A stretch of DNA of 64,000 nucleotides from NCBI GenBank assembly GCA_035515435.1, contig DATJBI010000067.1, forward strand, positions 32,788 to 96,787, read 5' to 3'. Made by a program: the position numbers and the translations under genes. This document shows positions 54,018 through 64,000 of the stretch, piece after piece. The notes beneath the pieces were generated by a model, which saw nothing but the letters and a program-made list of their open reading frames with translations, did no database searches and had not been told where the DNA came from. The first letter of the stretch is position 1; the number at the start of each line of letters is the position of its first letter. Source of the DNA: Anaerolineales bacterium. GTDB taxonomy: Bacteria; Chloroflexota; Anaerolineae; Anaerolineales; Villigracilaceae.

Positions 54018-55172
54018 TTATCCTGTCTTCGTTGTATACAGATCACTGACCGCTACCGGCGTGCCGACGTTGGGCCACTGCATCTGGATCTCGCTTTGGT
54101 CCAGGGAAACAAACGGCGAGGTCCAGCGGAAGATCCATTGCGCATCCTGGGGGGTCACGTTGATGCAGCCATGCGATTTCTGGCTGCCAAAATAGTTATG
54201 CCAGAAGACCCCGTGGATGGCTGCGCCCACGTTCAGATTGAAAAACGTCGGCCACGGAACCGCCATCGTATCATAGCCGTTATCGCTGCCTCCTGCTTTT
54301 CCCAAACTGGCGGACATGTGGATAGAGAACATCTTTCTGGCCACATCCTGATCGCCGACGGGCGTGGAATACTGAGCCTGGTCATCGCCGCTCGAAATCC
54401 TGCAGAAGTAGACCTCGTTCTTGCCCTCGAAGCAGGAAAGGGTTTGATGCTGCGGGGTGGCGTCCACGGTGATCTTCTTGGTGGCCGGATCGACATTGGG
54501 GTTGATCGGTGAAACATCGTCCGCCGTCAGCGGACGGAATGCAGCCGCGTCGGCCAGGAACACATCGCCGTATCCGTAGCCATGACCGGGTGACTCATTA
54601 AAGCGATAAACGACTTTGCCGGTCGAATCCGTGCCGACCTGATCCAGCCAGACCACCTGACTATAATACAACCGCACCGGCTGAGCGTGCTCCATCAGAA
54701 ATTTTATGGCCGGGGCGATCGGCTGATTTTGGATCTTCAAGTCAACGTAGGGAACCGTCACCTCGGCCCAAAAGCCCCCCTTGCCTGCCGGAACGGAGGA
54801 GAGGGGAGTGTTCGGCAGATTGCGAACAGGCTGAACGTGCGGCAGATACAGATATCCATCCGGTGTCTCCACCCACTGCCGGCTGATGCCTCCCGTGTCT
54901 GTCGTGCCCACGACCTCCCGCAGCCAGACCACAACTTCATCCTGCCCGACATTTCGAACGGCCGCAGCATTTTCGTTCGGGCTTGTCCGCAGCACCGTGG
55001 AATTGAAATAGGGGGTCACCGCAATCCTGCCCAAATGATCTCCGGGCGGAAATTGTGCCAGGGCCGGAACGCCCAATTCGCGCGCCCCCGCAAACGGATT
55101 GAAGACAAGGGTGCCCGCGCTGAAACCAGCCAGTTTCAGGAAGTCGCGGCGCGACAAGTAATCAAATTTCAT
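54018..55172 (-). CDS. L,D-transpeptidase (YkuD) with Tat signal peptide
   Basis: SRRDFLKLAG twin-arginine motif. Catalytic HGVFWH...SHGCINV. Confidence 0.88.
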   Translation of the reverse strand: MKFDYLSRRDFLKLAGFSAGTLVFNPFAGARELGVPALAQFPPGDHLGRIAVTPYFNSTVLRTSPNENAAAVRNVGQDEVVVWLREVVGTTDTGGISRQWVETPDGYLYLPHVQPVRNLPNTPLSSVPAGKGGFWAEVTVPYVDLKIQNQPIAPAIKFLMEHAQPVRLYYSQVVWLDQVGTDSTGKVVYRFNESPGHGYGYGDVFLADAAAFRPLTADDVSPINPNVDPATKKITVDATPQHQTLSCFEGKNEVYFCRISSGDDQAQYSTPVGDQDVARKMFSIHMSASLGKAGGSDNGYDTMAVPWPTFFNLNVGAAIHGVFWHNYFGSQKSHGCINVTPQDAQWIFRWTSPFVSLDQSEIQMQWPNVGTPVAVSDLYTTKTG

Positions 55173-55320
55173 GTTCCTTCACCTTTGCTGCTTCTTGGAA
55201 TGGTCTTGAATGCGGTGTGACGGGTCAAAGGCATCAAAGACTTTCGCGGATTCAGATCAGCTCGACGTGCTCCGTAAAAAGATTGAGCAAGGATACTCGT
55301 AAAGAGGCGCGCCGTCAAAC

Positions 55321-55361
55321 CCCTCCCGCCCTTCCCGCCTTGCAAGGGGATTTGGGGAGGG
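55321..55361. repeat. Imperfect GC-rich palindrome sharing the TTGGGGAGGG core with 13025-13061
   Basis: CCCTCCCGCCCTTCCCGCCTTGCAAGGGGATTTGGGGAGGG. Confidence 0.35.
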
Positions 55362-55385
55362 TGCGGCGCGGCCGAGCCGCAGGGG

Positions 55386-56060
55386 TCATTCAAAAAATTC
55401 CTCCAGCGCACGCAGGCAATTCGCGCTGAGCTTGTGCCCGACTTCATCTTCACAGAATGTGACGGAGGCACCTGCACGTTCCAGCATTTCGACGGATCGC
55501 CGCGCCTGTTCGATCTGGACCATTTCATCCAGCGTTCCATGGGCGACGAAAAACGGCCTGCCGCTCAACGGACGTTTCTCGATCAACGGTTCTGATCCGG
55601 CCGGAAGGAAACCCGCCAGGACACCCGCGCGGCGGATGCGTTCGGGATGGAGCAAAGCGATGGCATTGGTCAACGCCGCGCCCTGACTGAAGCCGATCAC
55701 ATCGAATCGATGCGCATCGAGTTCATTTTGCGCGGCGTACTCATCAACGAGCGCGATCAGGGCCTCGGCGGAAGGACGAAAATCTTCGAGGCGGGGTGCG
55801 CGGCGCCCGCCGGGCTGCGCGTGTTGAGGGGCCGCCGGCCCACGCCAGGAATATCCTCCCGGCTGACCGGCATGAGGCGCGCGCGGTGCGATGGTCCAGT
55901 AATCCAAAGCCAGGTTCCGCATGAAAACCCACATCGAATTTTCATCGCCGGTCCAGCCATGCAGGAGAAGCAATACACGCGCAGGTTTCTGCGCCGCGGG
56001 TCGCACGCGCAGCGTCCAGTTCCCGAACCCGATCAATTGCGTATCATTTGGAACCCGCAT
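55386..56060 (-). CDS. Alpha/beta hydrolase (phospholipase/carboxylesterase family)
   Basis: 224 aa; LLLHGWTGDE, nucleophile elbow GFSQGA, HGTLDEMV. Confidence 0.85.
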   Translation of the reverse strand: MRVPNDTQLIGFGNWTLRVRPAAQKPARVLLLLHGWTGDENSMWVFMRNLALDYWTIAPRAPHAGQPGGYSWRGPAAPQHAQPGGRRAPRLEDFRPSAEALIALVDEYAAQNELDAHRFDVIGFSQGAALTNAIALLHPERIRRAGVLAGFLPAGSEPLIEKRPLSGRPFFVAHGTLDEMVQIEQARRSVEMLERAGASVTFCEDEVGHKLSANCLRALEEFFE

Positions 56061-56313
56061 TCTTCACAATCCAATCCATGCCAAATAACACCAGCAAAAT
56101 AAGGACGATCGGCACCAGCGCACCCAGCAGGCACAACAGGCCCATGACTGCCGCGCCCGGGCCGTAGATCAGCCAGATCAATCCAAGCCCCACGACAAAC
56201 AACAGGCCGAACGCACCCGCGGCAAGCTGAATGTTGGTTCGTCTCGCATATTGCCGCAGATCGCGTTTCAGGTTCCATCTCCAAGCAGCTGGCGGCGCAG
56301 GCGGTTCGGCCAC
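56044..56313 (-). CDS. Small hypothetical membrane protein (2 TM)
   Basis: 89 aa with two clear hydrophobic helices. Overlaps both neighbours, so the start is uncertain. Confidence 0.45.
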   Translation of the reverse strand: MAEPPAPPAAWRWNLKRDLRQYARRTNIQLAAGAFGLLFVVGLGLIWLIYGPGAAVMGLLCLLGALVPIVLILLVLFGMDWIVKNAGSK

Positions 56314-57167
56314 GTTGTAATGCGTTTGAGCTCGGGCAAAACCGCATCCATTGCGATCTCGCCGCGCCTGGCCACCTCATGCACATCCACGACATCCAAT
56401 AATCCAATATCCGCGACCTCAGGACGAATGATCACATCGGGCTTGTCAATCTTCAAGCGCAGGTCGGTCAACAGACGGTCGGACACATCCAGGGAGCGGA
56501 CGAACACGCTCAGCGCCTGCGTGATGCGCAGGTGGGTCAGCTGCTGAACGATCGGTTGAGGGATGGGCAGGCGAATGGAAGGCATGCGCGCCGGTTCGCC
56601 GAGGGGATCGGCCAAAACCACGGCCACGACGGGCAGATGAGGCGCAAGGGAGCGGGCGACCGAAACCGGGACCGGATCGAACGTGCCGCCATCCACCAAT
56701 TCCATTCCGTCCGCCCGAAACGGTGAGAAGATCGTGGGGATCGCGATCGTCGCGAGAATCGCGTCGCGCACGCGGCCCTCGGACAAGATCACCTCCTGGG
56801 CGCTGTTCAGATCGATGGCCGCCACCGCGAACGGAATCTTCAGATCGGCAAAGGTACGATCGCCAAGTGCGTCAATCAGCCATTGTTCAACGCCTGCCAG
56901 GCCATACAACGAGGCGTTATCCTGGGGGCGGCGCCCATACAAATGGTGTTGATCGGCGCGCGCAAAGAGCCCCTCCAATTCATCGACGGAATAGCCGGCG
57001 GCATAGACCGCGCCCACCACGCCGCCAAAACTGGTGCCGGCGATGGCGCTTACGCGAAACCCATGCTTTTCCAGCTGGCGCAAAACCCCAATATGCGAAT
57101 TGCCTTTCGCACCGCCGGCGCCTAATGCCAAAGAAATATCCATGCCATCATCCTGATTGACCGCCAA
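56268..57167 (-). CDS. Patatin-like phospholipase
   Basis: GAGGAKG oxyanion motif, GTSFG nucleophile, DGG. Confidence 0.9.
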   Translation of the reverse strand: MAVNQDDGMDISLALGAGGAKGNSHIGVLRQLEKHGFRVSAIAGTSFGGVVGAVYAAGYSVDELEGLFARADQHHLYGRRPQDNASLYGLAGVEQWLIDALGDRTFADLKIPFAVAAIDLNSAQEVILSEGRVRDAILATIAIPTIFSPFRADGMELVDGGTFDPVPVSVARSLAPHLPVVAVVLADPLGEPARMPSIRLPIPQPIVQQLTHLRITQALSVFVRSLDVSDRLLTDLRLKIDKPDVIIRPEVADIGLLDVVDVHEVARRGEIAMDAVLPELKRITTWPNRLRRQLLGDGT

Positions 57168-57187
57168 ACAAAAAACTTACCTGCAAA

Positions 57188-58345
57188 TTATACGCGTTCT
57201 GAAAGCACGCGTTGCAGTGCATTAATCAAAGCCTTAATATCGTCCGGCGTGTTGTAGGCCTGCACGGAAACCCGGATCAGCTTTTTCCCATCCCATTCAT
57301 GAAGCGGCACCTCGATCCGGTATCTGTCATGAAGCCGTCTCTGGAGCTGAGAGACATTGATCGAATCGGGCAGCGGCGCCGCAAACATTTGAACATACCA
57401 ACTGTCATCGGGATAAAAGGATGGGAGCGCGGTGAGCTGCTCGATCTGTTCCAGCGCCTCGCGCGCCAACGCATGGCAGGCGGCCCGGCGGCGACCCCAG
57501 GCATGTCTCTCCTGAAATCGGATCGCGGCCGGAACCGACAAGAATGCGGACAGATCGCGCGTTCCCATCCATTCATGGTAGTCAACCAGCGCCGAGCCAG
57601 TGGGGGTCTCCGTCTCATAACCCCACGAAACGACCAGCGGCTTGAGCAAATGCTGAACCTGCGGCCGCGCATACAAAAATCCCGCCCCCTTGGGCGCGCA
57701 CAGCCACTTGTGCAGATTGCCTCCGTAGAAATCCGCGCCGAGCGCATCCAGATCGAGATCAATTTGTCCAGGGGCGTGGGCTCCGTCCAGGATGGTGAGA
57801 ATGTTGTTTTCGCGCGCCCGGCGCAGCACGGCCGCAGTCGGAAACAGAATCGCCGTCGGCGAGGTAATATGGCTGAGAAAGATCACACGGGTCCGCGGGG
57901 TGATGCCCTGCCAGAGGTCATCCACGAACCGCTGCTCGCTCGAAAGCGGCAAAGAGATTTTTTGACGGATATACTTGAAACCCCGTTCGCCGGATAAGAA
58001 TCTCCAGGTTCGATCCAGTGCGCCATATTCATGATCGCTGGTTAAGACCTCATCGCCGGGGCACAGTTCGAGGGAACGCGCCACGATATTCAGGGCGATC
58101 GTGACGTTCTGAGTGTAGACCAGATTATCCGCCGCCGTACCCAGATATTTTCCAAGTTCGAGGCGTGAGGCCGCCATCAGTTGCGGGGCGCGCCGGCCCA
58201 GAAATTCGACGGGCTGCCGTTCCAGTTCGCGTTGCCAGTGCTGATAATCTTGAAAGACCGGCCTCGGCGTCGCGCCGAACGAACCGTGATTGAGAAAATG
58301 GATCTTTGGATCCAGGAGAAACTGATCCTGCAGGGAAGACATCAA
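57188..58345 (-). CDS. Aminotransferase class V (isopenicillin-N epimerase / cysteine desulfurase-like)
   Basis: 385 aa; LNHGSFG, SHITSPT, GNLHKWL (PLP Lys). Confidence 0.85.
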   Translation of the reverse strand: MMSSLQDQFLLDPKIHFLNHGSFGATPRPVFQDYQHWQRELERQPVEFLGRRAPQLMAASRLELGKYLGTAADNLVYTQNVTIALNIVARSLELCPGDEVLTSDHEYGALDRTWRFLSGERGFKYIRQKISLPLSSEQRFVDDLWQGITPRTRVIFLSHITSPTAILFPTAAVLRRARENNILTILDGAHAPGQIDLDLDALGADFYGGNLHKWLCAPKGAGFLYARPQVQHLLKPLVVSWGYETETPTGSALVDYHEWMGTRDLSAFLSVPAAIRFQERHAWGRRRAACHALAREALEQIEQLTALPSFYPDDSWYVQMFAAPLPDSINVSQLQRRLHDRYRIEVPLHEWDGKKLIRVSVQAYNTPDDIKALINALQRVLSERV

Positions 58346-58446
58346 GTTATTATAAGCCTAAGGTCGGGCCATAAATTTCGGAGCGGGCCCGGCCGGCGCG
58401 GAAGGGCCCCCGCCGCGTTTTCGCTTGAAACAGTATAATCGTCCTC

Positions 58447-59721
58447 GTGCTCTCTCGATTCTTTCCAAGTACTCTTCCAAAAGAACATCGCAGGAATTTC
58501 ATTCATCTTTATTTCGATATTGGGTGGTACGGCATCCTGGCAGGTTCTTCCGTCAATTTTCTCAATATCTATGCCACACGGCTGGGCGCGAATGGATTTG
58601 AAATCGGCTTGCTCACCGCGATGAGCGCACTGGTGAGCCTGACGCTCGCCATTCCTGCCGGGCACTGGATCGAAGGCCGTCCCATCGGCAAAGCCGTCTT
58701 CTGGTCCTCCGTCATATACCGCATTGGTTTCCTGCTCTGGATCCCGCTGCCCTGGCTGTTTGGACCTTCAGCACAGATCTGGGCTTTGATCGTTCTGGCC
58801 CTGCTGATGGCGATCCCCCTGACGCCGCTCTCGGTGGGTTTCAACGCGTTATTTGCCTCGGCCGTCCCAAATGAATACCGGGCCCATGTGGTCGGCATTC
58901 GCAACATCGTGCTCTCGATCACCTATATGATCTCGTCGATCGGCAGTGGCTACCTGCTGGGGCGCCTGGCTTTTCCCATTGGATATCAGGTCGTGTTTGG
59001 CATCGGATTCCTGGGCGCGGCGATGAGCAGCCTGCATCTTTATTTGATCAGGCCGGTGGTGGAACCGAACGTCAATGCGCTTCATGCAAAACCGGGGCCG
59101 GCGCCAAGACCCGCAGGAACAAACAAACGCTCAAGCTTTTTCTCGGCGATCCGCGCCGACATCTGGCAAACGCCGTTCCGGGTCGTTCTGTTTGCCCTGC
59201 TGCTTTTTCATCTGACCCAGAATCTTCCGCTGCCGATCTTTCCATTGATTCAGGTGAACGTACTGCATTTGACGGATAATCAGATCGGCATCGGCTCGGC
59301 GATATTCTATTTTATTCTGCTGATCGGCTCAACGCAGCTGCGAAGCATGGTCCAGCGGATCGGAAATCAAAAGGTGACGGCCATCGGCATCGTGGGCATG
59401 GCGCTGTATCCGATCGGTCTGGCCCTGTCAAGCACTGCCCTGCATTTTTATATAACCTCGGCGATCGGCGGACTCGCTTCTGCCCTGGCAACCGGCGCAT
59501 ACGCAAACTACCTTCTCGAACACATCCCCGCCGACGACCGTCCCGCGCACCTGGCTTGGTACAACATGGTCCTGAATTTATGCGTGCTGGTCGGTTCGTT
59601 GGCGGGTCCGTTGATCGCCAACGTGATCGGCTTGACGACCGCCTTGTTCATTTTTGCGGCGGCGCGCATCCTGGCCGGCCTGGCGATCTTCAAATGGGGC
59701 ACGCCTCCTGCAAGCGCATAA
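58447..59721 (+). CDS. MFS transporter
   Basis: 424 aa, about 12 TM helices. GTG start. Confidence 0.8.
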   Translation: MLSRFFPSTLPKEHRRNFIHLYFDIGWYGILAGSSVNFLNIYATRLGANGFEIGLLTAMSALVSLTLAIPAGHWIEGRPIGKAVFWSSVIYRIGFLLWIPLPWLFGPSAQIWALIVLALLMAIPLTPLSVGFNALFASAVPNEYRAHVVGIRNIVLSITYMISSIGSGYLLGRLAFPIGYQVVFGIGFLGAAMSSLHLYLIRPVVEPNVNALHAKPGPAPRPAGTNKRSSFFSAIRADIWQTPFRVVLFALLLFHLTQNLPLPIFPLIQVNVLHLTDNQIGIGSAIFYFILLIGSTQLRSMVQRIGNQKVTAIGIVGMALYPIGLALSSTALHFYITSAIGGLASALATGAYANYLLEHIPADDRPAHLAWYNMVLNLCVLVGSLAGPLIANVIGLTTALFIFAAARILAGLAIFKWGTPPASA

Positions 59722-59772
59722 TCCTTAGGGGCCGACCCGGGCACGGAGGCCGGGCTTGGCAATCGTGTTAAA

Positions 59773-60243
59773 ATGAAATACATGTCCGAGGATGTCAAGG
59801 TCGTTGCCACCAACCGCAAGGCTGGCTTTGAATATTTTCTTTTGGAACGCTTCGAAGCAGGGTTGTCCTTGCGGGGAAGCGAGATCAAGTCCATCCGCGC
59901 CGGGCAAATGAGCATCGTTGAATCTTACGTGGATATAGAAAACGGCCGAAATGCCTTTCTGGTGGAGGCGCATATCGCCCCCTATGAGCAGGCCAATCGC
60001 TTCAATCACGATCCCAAACGCAGGCGCCGCCTGCTGCTGCACCGAAAGGAGATCCGCGAGCTGTGGAACGGCGTCCGCCTGAAAGGGATGACGATCGTTC
60101 CGACCCGGGTTTATCTGAAAAATGGGCGCGCCAAGATCGAAATCGCTTTGGCGCGCGGCAAGAAATTGCACGACAAGCGCGAGGCGATTGCCAGACGCGA
60201 TGCCGAGCGTGAGGCCAAGCGAGATGCACATCCAGGGGTGTGA
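59773..60243 (+). CDS. smpB: SsrA-binding protein SmpB
   Basis: ATNRKAGFEYFLLERFEAGLSLRGSEIKSIR...HDPKRRRRLLLHRKEI. The start may be ATG 59782. Confidence 0.95.
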   Translation: MKYMSEDVKVVATNRKAGFEYFLLERFEAGLSLRGSEIKSIRAGQMSIVESYVDIENGRNAFLVEAHIAPYEQANRFNHDPKRRRRLLLHRKEIRELWNGVRLKGMTIVPTRVYLKNGRAKIEIALARGKKLHDKREAIARRDAEREAKRDAHPGV

Positions 60244-60246
60244 CTC

Positions 60247-61026
60247 ATGAGGCCTTCCACGATCGGGGGCATCAATTTACTGGCCGAGCAAGAAAAGCGC
60301 AGGATCTATTATGGGTTGATCCCGCGCGAATTGCTGGAATATTTTCAGCTGCCGCGGATCAACACGCCACAATTCGACTCGCTTGCTCACTTTCGATTCG
60401 CGCCCGGTTCCAGCAACGTGGAAATGTCCTTATTTCATGAACCGCACTTCCCCGACCCGGTCCTTTACGGACATCTCACGGATACGATGAACGGACAGAT
60501 CCATATCCTTTTGTATATCGTGAATGATCCGGCTTCCGCCCGCTTTGACGTGGATAAAATGCCGGACGGGCGCCCCACTCAATTCGGCACACTGACGCGC
60601 AACATCGAGGCGGAGCAGGCGGCTCTCCAAGCCGGCCTCGCGCCGGGCCAGGTGCGGCGCGGGTTGCGAATGCTGCAGGCGGCTGTCATCGGGTTTGAAA
60701 ATTTCGTGGAAGGCCTTGGGCATGATCTGTATTTTGTCGAGCCGCTCTACTACCACAATGCCGTCATCTTCGAGCGTTATGGCTTTGCCTATCAGCAGGG
60801 CCGAAAGTTGATGGAACGCATCCACCAGGGATTCTCAGAAAGCGACGATCTGATCGGCAAATTGGACGGCTCCCCGTTTCGACCTACCGAGGCCAGGCAG
60901 AGCATCCGCCTGCGTTCGTGGGCGATTCACGATGGGATATTGGGTGAACCATTTACGAATGTGACCATGTACAAACGCATCGGCCGATCGGCTGGCATCA
61001 GTACCACCGCCGACACCCAATGGTAA
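60247..61026 (+). CDS. Hypothetical protein, apparently co-transcribed with smpB
   Basis: 259 aa; 3 nt gap after smpB. Only a weak GNAT-like hint (NAVIFERYGF). Confidence 0.6.
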   Translation: MRPSTIGGINLLAEQEKRRIYYGLIPRELLEYFQLPRINTPQFDSLAHFRFAPGSSNVEMSLFHEPHFPDPVLYGHLTDTMNGQIHILLYIVNDPASARFDVDKMPDGRPTQFGTLTRNIEAEQAALQAGLAPGQVRRGLRMLQAAVIGFENFVEGLGHDLYFVEPLYYHNAVIFERYGFAYQQGRKLMERIHQGFSESDDLIGKLDGSPFRPTEARQSIRLRSWAIHDGILGEPFTNVTMYKRIGRSAGISTTADTQW

Positions 61027-61054
61027 AAAAAGGACTGCCGAGGCAGTCTTTTTT
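61024..61054. terminator. Bidirectional intrinsic terminator
   Basis: AAAAAAA-GGACTGC-cgag-GCAGTCT-TTTTTT. Confidence 0.75.
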
Positions 61055-61057
61055 TGC

Positions 61058-61084
61058 GGGGCGGAGCGGGGACAGGACTCGAAC
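61058..61084 (-). other. tRNA 3'-end-like fragment (T-loop, T-stem 3' arm, acceptor 3' strand) without a 5' half
   Basis: Minus strand reads GGTTCGAGTCCTGTCCCCGCTCCGCCC. The 5' T-stem arm and the rest of a cloverleaf could not be built. Confidence 0.35.
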
Positions 61085-61091
61085 CGGAGAG

Positions 61092-61330
61092 CGGGGGCTA
61101 TGAGCCGGTACCCCGATTCGACGGGCGCCGAGCGCTCAACTTGCCTCCCAAGGGAGCTGCCGCCAGCTTGCTGTCGATCGATAAATTTGCCAGATGCAGC
61201 ACATTACTGCAATAGAATTGTTCTTTCCCCTTCTTTAGGCCGCCATATTTCAATCGAGTATCCAAAGTACAGCCGGTATTGCTTTTATACGTGGAACGAG
61301 ACTGGCGGAAGAACCACTTTTTTGGGTGAA
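61092..61330 (+). ncRNA. ssrA: tmRNA (ssrA)-like 5' domain; no matching 3' tRNA-like end found, so possibly truncated or misread
   Basis: GGGGGCT...GATTCGACGGGCGCCGAG resembles the conserved tmRNA 5' end (E. coli GGGGCUGAUUCUGGAUUCGACGGGA). Lies 850 nt downstream of smpB. No convincing tag ORF ending in a hydrophobic tail plus stop. Confidence 0.3.
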
Positions 61331-61339
61331 GCCCAAACC

Positions 61340-61437
61340 TACTCCTGCCCTTGCTTGACAATCTTCTCCTACGCAAGCGGGCCATCATTGAGGGTGTGAT
61401 TGACCAACTCAAGAACATTTCTCAAATTGTACACACT
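61340..61437 (+). mobile_element. Remnant of a DDE transposase C-terminus (IS982/IS4-like)
   Basis: In-frame [28 protein letters not shown] resembles the LLRKRx[14 protein letters not shown] motif of IS982-type transposases. Only about 30 codons, with no N-terminal part. Confidence 0.5.
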
Positions 61438-61505
61438 GACCAACCGGGTTCCATTTTGCGAGACCCCGGAGTGGCCACCTCACTGCCTCCGAATGGGGCT
61501 GGGGA

Positions 61506-61943
61506 TCACCGGCCCAATATTCTGAACTTCTGAGAAACATCTCGAGATTCGCCAAGCACAACCCCGTTGACCTCCACCCAGGCATGGGCATGGATCTCTG
61601 CCATGCTCTTATAGACCCCGATGCAAAGGTGTGCCGGGATGTTTCGCTCCACCAGCATTTCCTGTATAGCAAGCGATCTCATCAGACAGGTCATCGGGAG
61701 CAGATGCAGGCGCGCCGCATAGGCAACCAGCTGCTGTATTCTTTTCGCAAGGATCAAGGCCTGGGATGGATCGGATCTTTTGTCCATAGCTGGATGAGCC
61801 TGGATGGATAGGCGCTCATAACTCATCCAGCGCGAGGCCAGATGGTAGAAGAACAACAACGCCCACGCCTCGACCAGCCCCAGCCAATCGGGCACGGAAA
61901 GCTGCCTTGCAAGCAGCGCCTTTTGCTTAAGCGATTTCAACAA
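61506..61943 (-). CDS. Lasso peptide biosynthesis B2 protein (transglutaminase-like leader peptidase)
   Basis: 145 aa; ...[10 protein letters not shown]...[10 protein letters not shown]... Cys/His arrangement typical of the lasso B2 protease. Confidence 0.88.
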
Positions 61944-62202
61944 GCTTGTTGTCCAATAGTTGTCCCACCAGTTCCAAAATGTCCTGTTCGAGTTGCGCCG
62001 GCTGGACTTCGTATTCTGCCCGCAGGGACTGGCAGGCCTCCTTCAAGGGGGTGCCGTCTTTTAGCAGGGTCCATAGACGCGTGCCGACCTCCTGCAGGGC
62101 GAAATATCTGTTGGTGCGTGTGTTAAGCAAGAACGCATCCTGACCTACAACTGTGAATGTGACGTACGGCGGGATAAGCAGGGTCGAATCAAGCGTCAAC
62201 AT
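61927..62202 (-). CDS. Lasso peptide biosynthesis B1 protein (PqqD-like RRE)
   Basis: 91 aa; FLLNTRTNRYFALQEVGTRLWTLL...[11 protein letters not shown]. Overlaps B2 and the kinase. Confidence 0.85.
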   Translation of the reverse strand: MLTLDSTLLIPPYVTFTVVGQDAFLLNTRTNRYFALQEVGTRLWTLLKDGTPLKEACQSLRAEYEVQPAQLEQDILELVGQLLDNKLVEIA

Positions 62203-63107
62203 ATGGTTCTCAATATCTCCGCGATGCCTGGAAGCGCATCCCGGCGATGCGGGTAGGACAGCCTATGGAAAGATACCTGGGGCGCGGCCTGAGCGCAGAA
62301 CTTCAGGTGTCTGGCGAGCAGAGTCGAATCGAACATGCGTGTGCCCGCGATATGGCTGAGCAGGGCCTGAAGACCTTGCGCGGTTGTGATCGTTTGCAGC
62401 TCCGGATCCTGCTTTACCCCGATGCGTTCCAGAAGGCAGACATTTGTTAAAGGCAGGCGCTCGGCCAATCCAGTCGCGGGCTGGACATCCACGGCTAATT
62501 TGAGCTGGGGAAAGTGCGGCATGACCTGCACTCCACCTGCAGCCAGCCCCACGGGCAGGATATCATCCGCGACCAGACGCCAGGGGGCATTTTGCGAGAG
62601 ATAGGCCGCCAGCGTGGATTTGCCTTGACCCGATTCGGCGAGGAACGCGATGATGCTTCTGCCCCTCATCACCGCACTGGCATGCAGGCACCAGACGGCG
62701 CGCAGGGCGAGGGCGAATACCAGCGCGGGGCCAAGCAGGATTTGCCGGTCTGTTTCGTTCAACATGCCCGGAGGCTCTGTCCGGTTCAAGGATTGAACCG
62801 TCTGCCCGTCACGGCTGATGAAAAAGTCACTGCCCCCCGCCACGCGCAGCAGGAATCCACGAAAAGCCGACCAGGTTTCCACGCTGCGCTTTGCATCGGC
62901 CACCCAGCCGACAGTCTGACAGATCAAAACCGGCGGTACCAGGACAGAAAAGACCGCCTGCCACTCTTTTCTGAGGAACGAAGGAGAAATGAATGGGACA
63001 GCTCTGTTCGCGGTCCCATTTTTTCGTACGGCAATTTGGAATGGTGTCAATTCCCCGATCGGACAGTCAAAATAAAGTTCCTGCCCGGCCACGCGGTACC
63101 ATGCCAT
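62196..63107 (-). CDS. HPr-kinase-like serine kinase associated with lasso clusters
   Basis: 303 aa; LHASAVMRGRSIIAFLAESGQGKSTLAAYL (P-loop in an HprK-like context). Sits between the precursor and B1. Confidence 0.75.
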   Translation of the reverse strand: MAWYRVAGQELYFDCPIGELTPFQIAVRKNGTANRAVPFISPSFLRKEWQAVFSVLVPPVLICQTVGWVADAKRSVETWSAFRGFLLRVAGGSDFFISRDGQTVQSLNRTEPPGMLNETDRQILLGPALVFALALRAVWCLHASAVMRGRSIIAFLAESGQGKSTLAAYLSQNAPWRLVADDILPVGLAAGGVQVMPHFPQLKLAVDVQPATGLAERLPLTNVCLLERIGVKQDPELQTITTAQGLQALLSHIAGTRMFDSTLLARHLKFCAQAAPQVSFHRLSYPHRRDALPGIAEILRTIC

Positions 63108-63174
63108 GAATTTATCCTGCTGCGAATTCCGAAAGTCCCTTTCTTGCCCGGATACACCCGCTCCAGATGGGACG

Positions 63175-63408
63175 CTACGGCCGGGGTGTAGGGCCTCCAG
63201 GAGGAAAGCCCTTGAGGCCGCTGTAGCCGCCGCCCATCGTAAACCCGGTGTTATAGTTCCCTGAATCTCCAGTCGATGTAATAGATGGACCCAGCGTCAA
63301 TGTGCGCAGGTCGCCCAATTCCCGTAGAGTTGGTTTCGTGTAGGGTTTGCGTTTTGCAGCGGCATGGATCTTTGCTTTTTCAGCAGAATTCGGTTGCTTA
63401 GTGGTCAT
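63175..63408 (-). CDS. Lasso peptide precursor (A)
   Basis: 77 aa; leader motif YTKPTLRELGDLRTLT-L, then GPSITSTGD... (Gly1 to Asp9). Sits between the cyclase and the kinase. Confidence 0.75.
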   Translation of the reverse strand: MTTKQPNSAEKAKIHAAAKRKPYTKPTLRELGDLRTLTLGPSITSTGDSGNYNTGFTMGGGYSGLKGFPPGGPTPRP

Positions 63409-63433
63409 TTGGAATTCCTGTAATCATTTTTAA

Positions 63434-64000
63434 TTATAGCAGATTATGTCCGGTAATAGTATGTCGGTGCCAGGCTTCATAGGCAATACACAGCCAGGGC
63501 ACAAGCCGCTCAGCAACATCCTCTTCCGGTATCACATTCCAGCGGCTTGAGATCCACTTTTCATCCACAAACTCGCGCCAGGCGGCATGCGAATCCAGAA
63601 AACAGGCCTGCTGGATGGCCTTTTCGCGCTCCATGCCGCGCAGGAATAATGGAGTAAAAGAAGTGCCTGTGGGGCGAGCACGGATCATCTCGGGCAGGAT
63701 ACCCTGCATGGCATTCCGCAGGATATGCTTGTAATATCCACGATGAAAGAGCTGATGAGCCGGAATGGCCAGGACGAATTCCACCAGACGGCGGTCTCGA
63801 TAGGGATGGCGCAGCTCAATTCCGTTCCGGCTGGCATTGAAAGTTTCTCTCGAGCTATTTAGAGCATTCGACGTTCCGACCAGACCGGCCTGGCGTTCCG
63901 AGAGAATCGGGGCAGCGCCATCAGCGTCAGACCGAAGCAGCAGTCGGGCTGCCGCCGGTGTCAGCCAGGTGGGTATGGCACGTCTGCGAAGTGAGCGCGG
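63434..64000 (-). CDS. Lasso peptide cyclase (asparagine synthetase-like, C protein), C-terminal part; runs off right edge
   Basis: The track ORF starts at GTG 63784, but my translation shows the frame stays open to position 64000 (...NGIELRHPYRDRRLVEFVLAIPAHQLF...), an AsnB-like C-terminal region. Confidence 0.8.
   Translation of the reverse strand, partial: PRSLRRRAIPTWLTPAAARLLLRSDADGAAPILSERQAGLVGTSNALNSSRETFNASRNGIELRHPYRDRRLVEFVLAIPAHQLFHRGYYKHILRNAMQGILPEMIRARPTGTSFTPLFLRGMEREKAIQQACFLDSHAAWREFVDEKWISSRWNVIPEEDVAERLVPWLCIAYEAWHRHTITGHNLL

Follow-up and report, generated by a model that had tools for sequence, protein, structure and literature searches.

A probable kinase-tailored lasso peptide gene cluster at the edge of a stretch of Anaerolineales DNA

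What do five genes make that lie side by side at the end of a 64,000-nucleotide stretch of DNA (from here on, the window) from an Anaerolineales bacterium (assembly GCA_035515435.1, contig DATJBI010000067.1)? A first-pass annotation, made from the sequence alone, had read them as a lasso peptide gene cluster that includes a kinase. The genes, called here C, A, K, B1 and B2, are predicted to encode a lasso cyclase, a precursor peptide, a kinase-like protein, a PqqD-type recognition element of the kind that serves peptides made on the ribosome and modified after translation (RiPPs), and a transglutaminase-like leader peptidase. We consider it very probable that the locus is a functional kinase-associated lasso cluster, and the explanation that best covers all of the data, which we regard as likely, is an operon in an Anaerolineales genome encoding a class II (no-disulfide) lasso peptide, a product that would be tailored by a dedicated peptide kinase. 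The five genes are the following:

63434-64000, minus strand: C, lasso cyclase gene (C-terminal 188 codons plus the stop codon; frame open to base 64000)
63175-63408, minus strand: A, precursor gene, 77 aa (above the NF033521 cut-off; homologous to the K-adjacent precursors of 60 related loci)
62196-63107, minus strand: K, kinase-like gene, 303 aa (phosphoenolpyruvate carboxykinase (PEPCK)/HPr kinase/phosphorylase (HPrK/P) fold, by AlphaFold2 (AF2) model and Foldseek)
61927-62202, minus strand: B1, PqqD-type RiPP recognition element, 91 aa (PF05402)
61506-61943, minus strand: B2, transglutaminase-like leader peptidase, 145 aa from the TTG at 61943 (PF13471, NF033537)

The five open reading frames (ORFs), their common orientation and their coordinates are as first annotated. 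Their description as mostly overlapping was half right: the last 7 nt of K are shared with the start of B1, and B2, if begun at its TTG, shares 17 nt with B1, whereas C and A are 25 nt apart and A and K 67 nt apart. An alternative start for B2, the GTG at 61895 as called on metagenome contigs, would give a product of 129 aa. The order C-A-K-B1-B2 is indeed the published order of the firmicute paeninodin-type clusters (PMC5067487). A scan of species-representative genomes with a kinase profile returned 116 relatives, from which 80 loci were kept, and since the same order recurs in most of these 80 loci, in dozens of genomes, the arrangement is not a product of chance. Three independent metagenome assemblies also carry the cluster, intact and almost unchanged, with 0-3 differences across the cluster between the window and these copies, a number that makes the comparison uninformative about selection. 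Its GC content (0.564) falls within the range of the window (0.582 +/- 0.02) and so gives no sign of recent import. A scan for sigma-70 promoters gave no candidate that exceeded the shuffled background.

A lasso cluster with a split B1/B2, an AsnB-like cyclase and an HPr-kinase-like protein is supported by family models, by the alignment of K with its homologues and by a fold search. The fragment of C matches Pfam Asn_synthase (5.8e-8), its top NCBIfam model is the lasso cyclase NF033535 (1.2e-19), and its frame runs open into the edge of the window, in agreement with the partial AsnB-like cyclase proposed at first. Over the 567 nt of C that metagenome contig L003 has in common with the window the two do not differ, and L003 carries the protein on to 527 aa, SGGLDS PP-loop included; this longer version scores 306 bits with NF033535 versus 202 bits with the Asn synthase model TIGR01536, both below the curated cut-offs. 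It is open throughout and aligns end to end with full-length relatives, falling 89 residues short of them because contig L003 ends there, with no stop or frameshift seen. The rest of the cyclase, which the first-pass annotation had wished to see, has thus been followed on L003 beyond base 64000 as an open frame up to its N-terminal ~89 residues, which still lie outside.

Exact-protein look-ups with K and A found only three short contigs, two of which stop at the same base inside C. These two, L001 (ENA ERZ27256514) and L003 (Logan SRR8881011), are independent assemblies that share a break base in the cyclase 89 codons from the expected start, which hints at a repeat or a strain-variable junction just upstream. 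When metagenome contigs were scanned for exact DNA matches to 28-30-mers of the 5' part of C, as read on L001, none was found.

For the two leader-processing proteins, the profile searches suggested with the original assignments bore these out. B1 matches PqqD (PF05402) at 1.1e-16, with 61.4 bits against a cut-off of 23.4, and among NCBIfam models the lasso PqqD chaperones NF033530 and NF033536 score highest with it, though neither reaches its cut-off. B2 matches PF13471 above gathering (2.7e-21, 76.1 bits) and the lasso B2 model NF033537 with 69.1 bits versus a cut-off of 33, and it retains Cys86 (in TCLMRS) and His120 (in HAWVE). B2 was also tried as a proxy for clade membership and was of no help, being equidistant from all reference B2 proteins, with 26-33% identity to every one tested (paeninodin PadeB2, 2e-8; Bradymonas BsfB2, 6e-6; an acidobacterial B2, 1e-12).

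The precursor is divided into leader and core as follows:

63292-63408, minus strand: leader of A, residues 1-39
63178-63291, minus strand: core of A, residues 40-77, 38 aa, GPSITSTGDSGNYNTGFTMGGGYSGLKGFPPGGPTPRP

A scores 23.6 bits with NF033521 (lasso_leader_L3; cut-off 19) over residues 23-41, and Y23, P26, L28 and T38 stand at -17, -14, -12 and -2 relative to G40, the same distances that have been reported for recognition by B1 and cleavage by B2 (PMC10368454). The core begins with Gly1 and carries its single acidic residue at Asp9, that is, it has the small N-terminal residue and the Asp/Glu at positions 7-9 by which lasso cores are recognised, and as there is no second acidic residue the ring can only be Gly1-Asp9. 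Nine Ser/Thr residues are found in the core, and the C-terminus reads ...TPRP, ending in Pro.

In K, the residues expected of a lasso kinase lie at these positions:

62682-62684, minus strand: His142
62616-62639, minus strand: P-loop AESGQGKS, residues 157-164
62562-62567, minus strand: Asp181-Asp182

H142, K163, D181 and D182 are invariant in an alignment with 22 homologues, within LHASA...GESGQGKST...LVADD, and make up the His-Lys-Asp-Asp motif described for lasso kinases (PMC9266682). The motif is in the same register as H148-G163-G166-G168-K169-S170-D186-D187 of BsfK, the kinase of the Bradymonas sediminis lasso cluster, whose importance was shown by mutagenesis (PMC10368454). An AF2 model of K (predicted local distance difference test score, pLDDT, 86.6; predicted template modelling score, pTM, 0.85) was compared with the PDB by Foldseek and matched PEP carboxykinases and HPr kinase/phosphorylases only (E 3e-7 to 1e-4), with a TM-score of 0.5-0.6 to the HPrK C-domain. 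A PDB search with the sequence alone gave no match, and a profile search against the PDB gave marginal P-loop matches only. Of the HPr-kinase-like identity first given to K, then, the fold and the catalytic residues hold, whereas the hidden Markov model check stays below thresholds, with weak Hpr_kinase_C matches only in the homologues.

How these proteins might work together is suggested by the precedent of BsfK and by a layout of Gly1, Ser3 and Asp8 shared between its substrate and the family of the window. The substrate of BsfK is a linear precursor with Asp as its last residue, which the kinase phosphorylates on core Ser3, and BsfB1 speeds this reaction up strongly (PMC10368454); from the published b-ions we derived the start of the BsfA core as G-T-pS-G-N-E-V-D-G-S-T-P-A-D-R. 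By analogy, B1 would bind the YxxPxL leader motif of the 77-aa precursor, and K, as a P-loop kinase of the HPrK/PEPCK fold, would phosphorylate the still-linear precursor with the aid of B1, the likeliest site being core Ser3; the 7-nt overlap of K and B1 fits the acceleration of BsfK by BsfB1. B2 would then cut after Thr(-2)-Leu(-1) (Leu39) and free the 38-residue core, after which C would adenylate Asp9 and join it to the amine of Gly1, giving a 9-residue macrolactam presumably threaded by the long, Gly/Pro-rich tail of 29 residues. Whether Ser3 is the residue that K modifies is, on this analogy, evenly balanced.

The window does not stand by itself. The top ~35 relatives in the scan came from Anaerolineales, Anaerolineaceae or 'Chloroflexi' metagenome-assembled genomes (MAGs), followed by Ardenticatenia, Acidobacteriota, Lysobacterales and one member of the Planctomycetales; the 80 loci are mostly from Anaerolineae, the family occurs in dozens of Anaerolineae species-representative genomes, and the cluster is no rarity in Chloroflexota. 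The best identity of K among the species representatives is only 61-64%, and the window's own lineage is consequently not among them. In a search of 1.84 billion representatives, the K profile matched 631 clusters at E<=1e-30, a number that rises to 6216 at E<=1e-10. A recognisable precursor is present in 60 loci, with the leader consensus RKPYxKPxLxxLGDLRxLTL and the core consensus G-[GAP]-S-P-G-x-G-[DE]-S-G, followed by a variable, often Pro-rich tail. Among 62 precursors, 51 have Ser and 9 have Thr at position 3, a Ser directly follows the ring acceptor in 58, the ring has 8 residues in 52 and 9 residues in 10 (window included), and the C-terminal residue is Pro in 33 and Ser in 2. No ABC family recurs near the clusters of the relatives. 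Genes of PF14907 are found in 10 related loci; we take this nucleotidyltransferase to be the kind of tailoring gene that stands beside PsmK and BsfK.

Single members of the family depart from this pattern. L061:2146-2631, from an Arenicellales MAG, holds two precursor genes in tandem, whose leaders are near-identical and whose cores differ; L084 (GCA_016219545.1, JACRMH010000013.1) reads giant-A-K-B1-B2, with no cyclase within 10 kb, and L085 (ENA k141_2236067) reads giant-C-A-K-PqqD and lacks a called B2. Some family members seem incomplete as lasso clusters, and the genes that vary least among loci seem to be A, K and B1.

The giant gene in these two loci belongs to a wider association. A very long gene on the same strand lies directly upstream of C in at least 41 of the 61 assessable loci, in Chloroflexota, Acidobacteriota, Pseudomonadota and Planctomycetota, with a gap to C of ~30-90 nt in the loci checked. 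Three of these genes are:

L084:880-9753, strand of the cluster: giant gene, protein of 2957 aa
L085:1-7849, strand of the cluster: giant gene, protein of at least 3270 aa
L005:1-3774, strand of the cluster: giant gene upstream of C

The giant protein combines adhesin-like SdrD_B, DUF7507, CARDB and GEVED repeats with a C-terminal Peptidase_C25 domain (1.2e-73). The nearest solved relative of this C25 domain is the type IX sortase PorU (6za2, 1e-10), PorU is also its best NCBIfam model (148 bits versus a cut-off of 420), and its GH...C catalytic motifs align with those of PorU, His and Cys being kept. On the other side of the cluster, downstream of B2, L006, L011, L013, L014, L022, L023, L025, L033 and L085 carry a module of a DUF4012 protein (~850 aa), an unknown protein of ~350 aa and a TMEM260-like O-mannosyltransferase/PMT-like glycosyltransferase, which in L085 is followed by a Wzz/GNVR tyrosine kinase and a low-molecular-weight phosphatase; other relatives have a GAF/SpoIIE phosphatase, a PF14907 nucleotidyltransferase or a ThrE exporter there instead. 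These downstream modules are absent from the window.

The closest syntenic relative of the window is L005 ('uncultured Chloroflexia bacterium MFD01231.bin.1.3'), in which L005:7897-10522 shares the window's downstream genes (orf259, smpB and a major facilitator superfamily (MFS) gene) and K is only 64% identical to that of the window. Several genes of L005 seem to be split by frameshifts, as is typical of long-read assemblies. Since the giant gene stands upstream of C in L005, the window probably carries one as well, beyond base 64000. It is possible, and we say so tentatively, that the kinase-tailored lasso family is a component of a conserved cell-surface system and not a source of free antibiotics; a peptide with a near-invariant ring and a variable Pro-rich tail would be a fitting regulator of the C25 peptidase, or a fitting substrate for it to trim or to attach. 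No paper turned up in the literature search that connects lasso peptides to C25 peptidases or to Anaerolineae.

Downstream of B2 in the window itself, four features were located ahead of an MFS gene:

61354-61437, plus strand: transposase remnant, ~28 codons of the C-terminal end of DDE_Tnp_1_3 (PF13612 positions 123-150 of 155, 33.8 bits versus 27)
61033-61048, no strand: GC-rich, terminator-like hairpin flanked by an A-run and a T-run (terminator scan and sequence)
60247-61026, plus strand: convergent 259-aa gene (orf259), no Pfam match, present also in L001, L002 and L005
59773-60243, plus strand: smpB

The first-pass annotation had placed an insertion sequence (IS) remnant against the cluster and had noted the absence of a D-type ABC exporter after B2, and both statements are correct: the transposase match, which covers residues 2-29 of the plus-strand ORF 61351-61533, lies 69 nt downstream of B2, and what follows is the hairpin, the convergent gene, smpB and the MFS gene. 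By its appearance, the hairpin could terminate transcription both from the cluster and from the convergent 259-aa gene. The spacer downstream of B2 does not align with that of L005. Between the IS remnant and the hairpin, at 61075-61085 on the minus strand and near smpB, lies the string GGTTCGAGTCC, which resembles the T-arm of a tRNA or tmRNA and could be the remnant of an integration site; ARAGORN and Rfam, run on the spacer and its surroundings, gave no tRNA, tmRNA or Rfam match despite this string, and no tmRNA gene was detected within 9 kb (55000-64000) though smpB is present. As to the host, the aspartyl-tRNA synthetase of the window is ~80% identical to many 'Anaerolineales bacterium' proteins, with every named match from Chloroflexota, and the nearest homologues of K are from Anaerolineales or 'Chloroflexi' MAGs, so the Chloroflexota-like look of the housekeeping genes was read rightly. 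That this phylum has no characterised lasso peptide also agrees with the literature search, which turned up only antiSMASH-type predictions.

Several facts speak against a working operon for a phosphorylated lasso peptide. No exporter or immunity gene is evident; the lasso peptide itself is a predicted product; lasso peptides are usually given as 16-23 residues long (PMC4289311), which the core of 38 residues, with its 29-residue tail, exceeds; and the first ~89 codons of C, together with everything upstream, are outside the available sequence. K falls below every curated threshold (TIGR04352 HprK_rel_A, 30.8 bits versus 200), has no Pfam match above gathering, and carries Ala157 (codon 62637-62639) in place of the first P-loop Gly that at least 90% of the 22 aligned homologues have (GESGQGKS). 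Ser3, moreover, is not the sole candidate site, because the Ser after the ring acceptor is equally conserved (58 of 62). K might accordingly act on another conserved hydroxyl, chiefly this Ser after the ring Asp (Ser10) and otherwise Thr5, Ser6 or Thr7, and the nine Ser/Thr residues of the core leave it a wide choice; yet the sole experimental precedent for a lasso kinase acting within the core is strictly regioselective for position 3, the substitutions S10A and T11A being without effect (PMC10368454), and we consider another site unlikely. That K is no active peptide kinase here, serving as a binding or scaffold protein or acting on some other substrate, for example a surface glycoconjugate, while the lasso peptide stays unmodified, would account for its low scores and for the position of relatives in glycosylation and polysaccharide loci. 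It would also account for Ala157, which is identical in all three metagenome copies and corresponds to G163 of BsfK, one of the residues whose substitution diminished activity (PMC10368454). The remaining catalytic residues, however, are all invariant, K always adjoins A and is coupled to B1, and the related kinases are proven peptide kinases, so we rate an inactive K as quite improbable.

A decaying remnant is a reading invited by the IS scar 69 nt from B2, by the lack of a transporter and of the downstream modules of the relatives, and by a cyclase whose 5' end lies outside the available sequence and which could be truncated. It has to be set against five intact reading frames with their catalytic motifs kept and against a cyclase that stays open for 527 aa and aligns with full-length relatives from end to end, on contigs that simply end, and it appears very unlikely to us. 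The gene order, identical to that of the firmicute C-A-K-B1-B2(-D) clusters, and the same His-Lys-Asp-Asp kinase residues could finally point to a true paeninodin-type system, in which K would (poly)phosphorylate the C-terminal residue of the precursor in the manner of PadeK, ThcoK, SyanK and PsmK. In paeninodin-type and SyanK-type precursors the C-terminal Ser is both the phosphorylation site and a conserved hallmark (PMC9266682), Ser is the last residue of every characterised substrate (PadeA, ThcoA, SyanA, PsmA, BaceA and PapoA), and it is this residue that the kinases are reported to recognise specifically, whereas the precursor of the window ends in ...TPRP and only 2 of the 62 family precursors end in Ser. 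C-terminal phosphorylation was accordingly rejected, O-phosphorylation of a C-terminal Pro being chemically impossible. As B2 in addition resembles PadeB2 no more than it does other B2 proteins, what the window shares with paeninodin is architecture only, and a true paeninodin-type system is extremely improbable. The class II lasso operon with a dedicated peptide kinase is the explanation that we retain.

The known kinase-tailored lasso peptides are a handful from Firmicutes and Proteobacteria, nearly all phosphorylated on a C-terminal serine, and the locus in the window points to a much larger uncharacterised family. It is new with respect to them in its precursor class, its likely phosphorylation site, the length of its tail, its phylum and its lack of an exporter. 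If expressed successfully, the cluster would yield the first characterised lasso peptide of the Chloroflexota, as far as the literature searches show, and would provide a second, independent test of the Ser3-kinase chemistry of Bradymonas. That a giant PorU-like peptidase/adhesin is linked with the clusters family-wide, a conserved and unexplained association, suggests a role other than antibiosis, a hypothesis that can be tested.

Compared with known systems, the paeninodin cluster padeCAKB1B2D of Paenibacillus dendritiformis C454, with its firmicute relatives of ThcoK and PsmK, shares with the window the order C-A-K-B1-B2, the split B and an HPr-kinase-like tailoring kinase with His-Lys-Asp-Asp, which in the paeninodin type acts on the linear precursor. 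The two differ in the C-terminal residue of the precursor (Ser in paeninodin, Pro in the window), in the D exporter, of which the window has none after B2, in host phylum, and in core length (~22 aa as counted from the PadeA sequence, versus 38 aa); the window B2 is only 28% identical to PadeB2. The SyanK-type proteobacterial clusters, as in Sphingobium yanoikuyae, likewise make a kinase-tailored lasso peptide with a split B, but in the order A-B1-B2-C-K-D, with a substrate ending in Ser, polyphosphorylation and an exporter.

Outside the lasso peptides, HPrK/P and PEP carboxykinase are the sole folds that superpose on the model of K. The profile of K homologues aligns with HPrK at the segment from the P-loop to Asp-Asp (1ko7_A residues 131-180 against query 132-182), a marginal match (E 0.14-0.26), and HPrK/P differs in its N-domain, which is unrelated to the N-terminal half of K, and in its role in carbon catabolite control as opposed to the RiPP context of K. 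Some K homologues have weak precomputed matches to PF27840, the family of ScmC from the SynChlorMet cassette, and none is recorded for the K of the window. ScmC is presumably likewise encoded beside a PqqD-like protein. The SynChlorMet cassette uses radical SAM/SPASM maturases, not lasso enzymes.

The bsf cluster of Bradymonas sediminis FA350 offers the functional comparison, since BsfK acts with the help of B1 on an internal core residue, Ser3, and not on the C-terminus (PMC10368454). Its gene order may differ from that of the window, to judge from the authors' promoters upstream of bsfC (PMC10368454), and it has a nucleotidyltransferase N and an ABC exporter D, both absent from the window. 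BsfB2 is only 28% identical to the window B2, and the Bsf type has Ile/Val at leader position -2 (Ile(-2) in Bsf itself), whereas the window and nearly the whole family have Thr(-2). In the kinases, compared by motif register alone, the P-loop, the His and the Asp-Asp stand in the same register. At the border of the bsf cluster a large repeat protein (FG-GAP) is encoded, the BsfA core, beginning G-T-S-G-N-E-V-D, has the same G1/S3/D8 layout as the family of the window, and the window precursor shows the Bsf-type trait of a Ser at core position 3 together with a C-terminus other than Ser.

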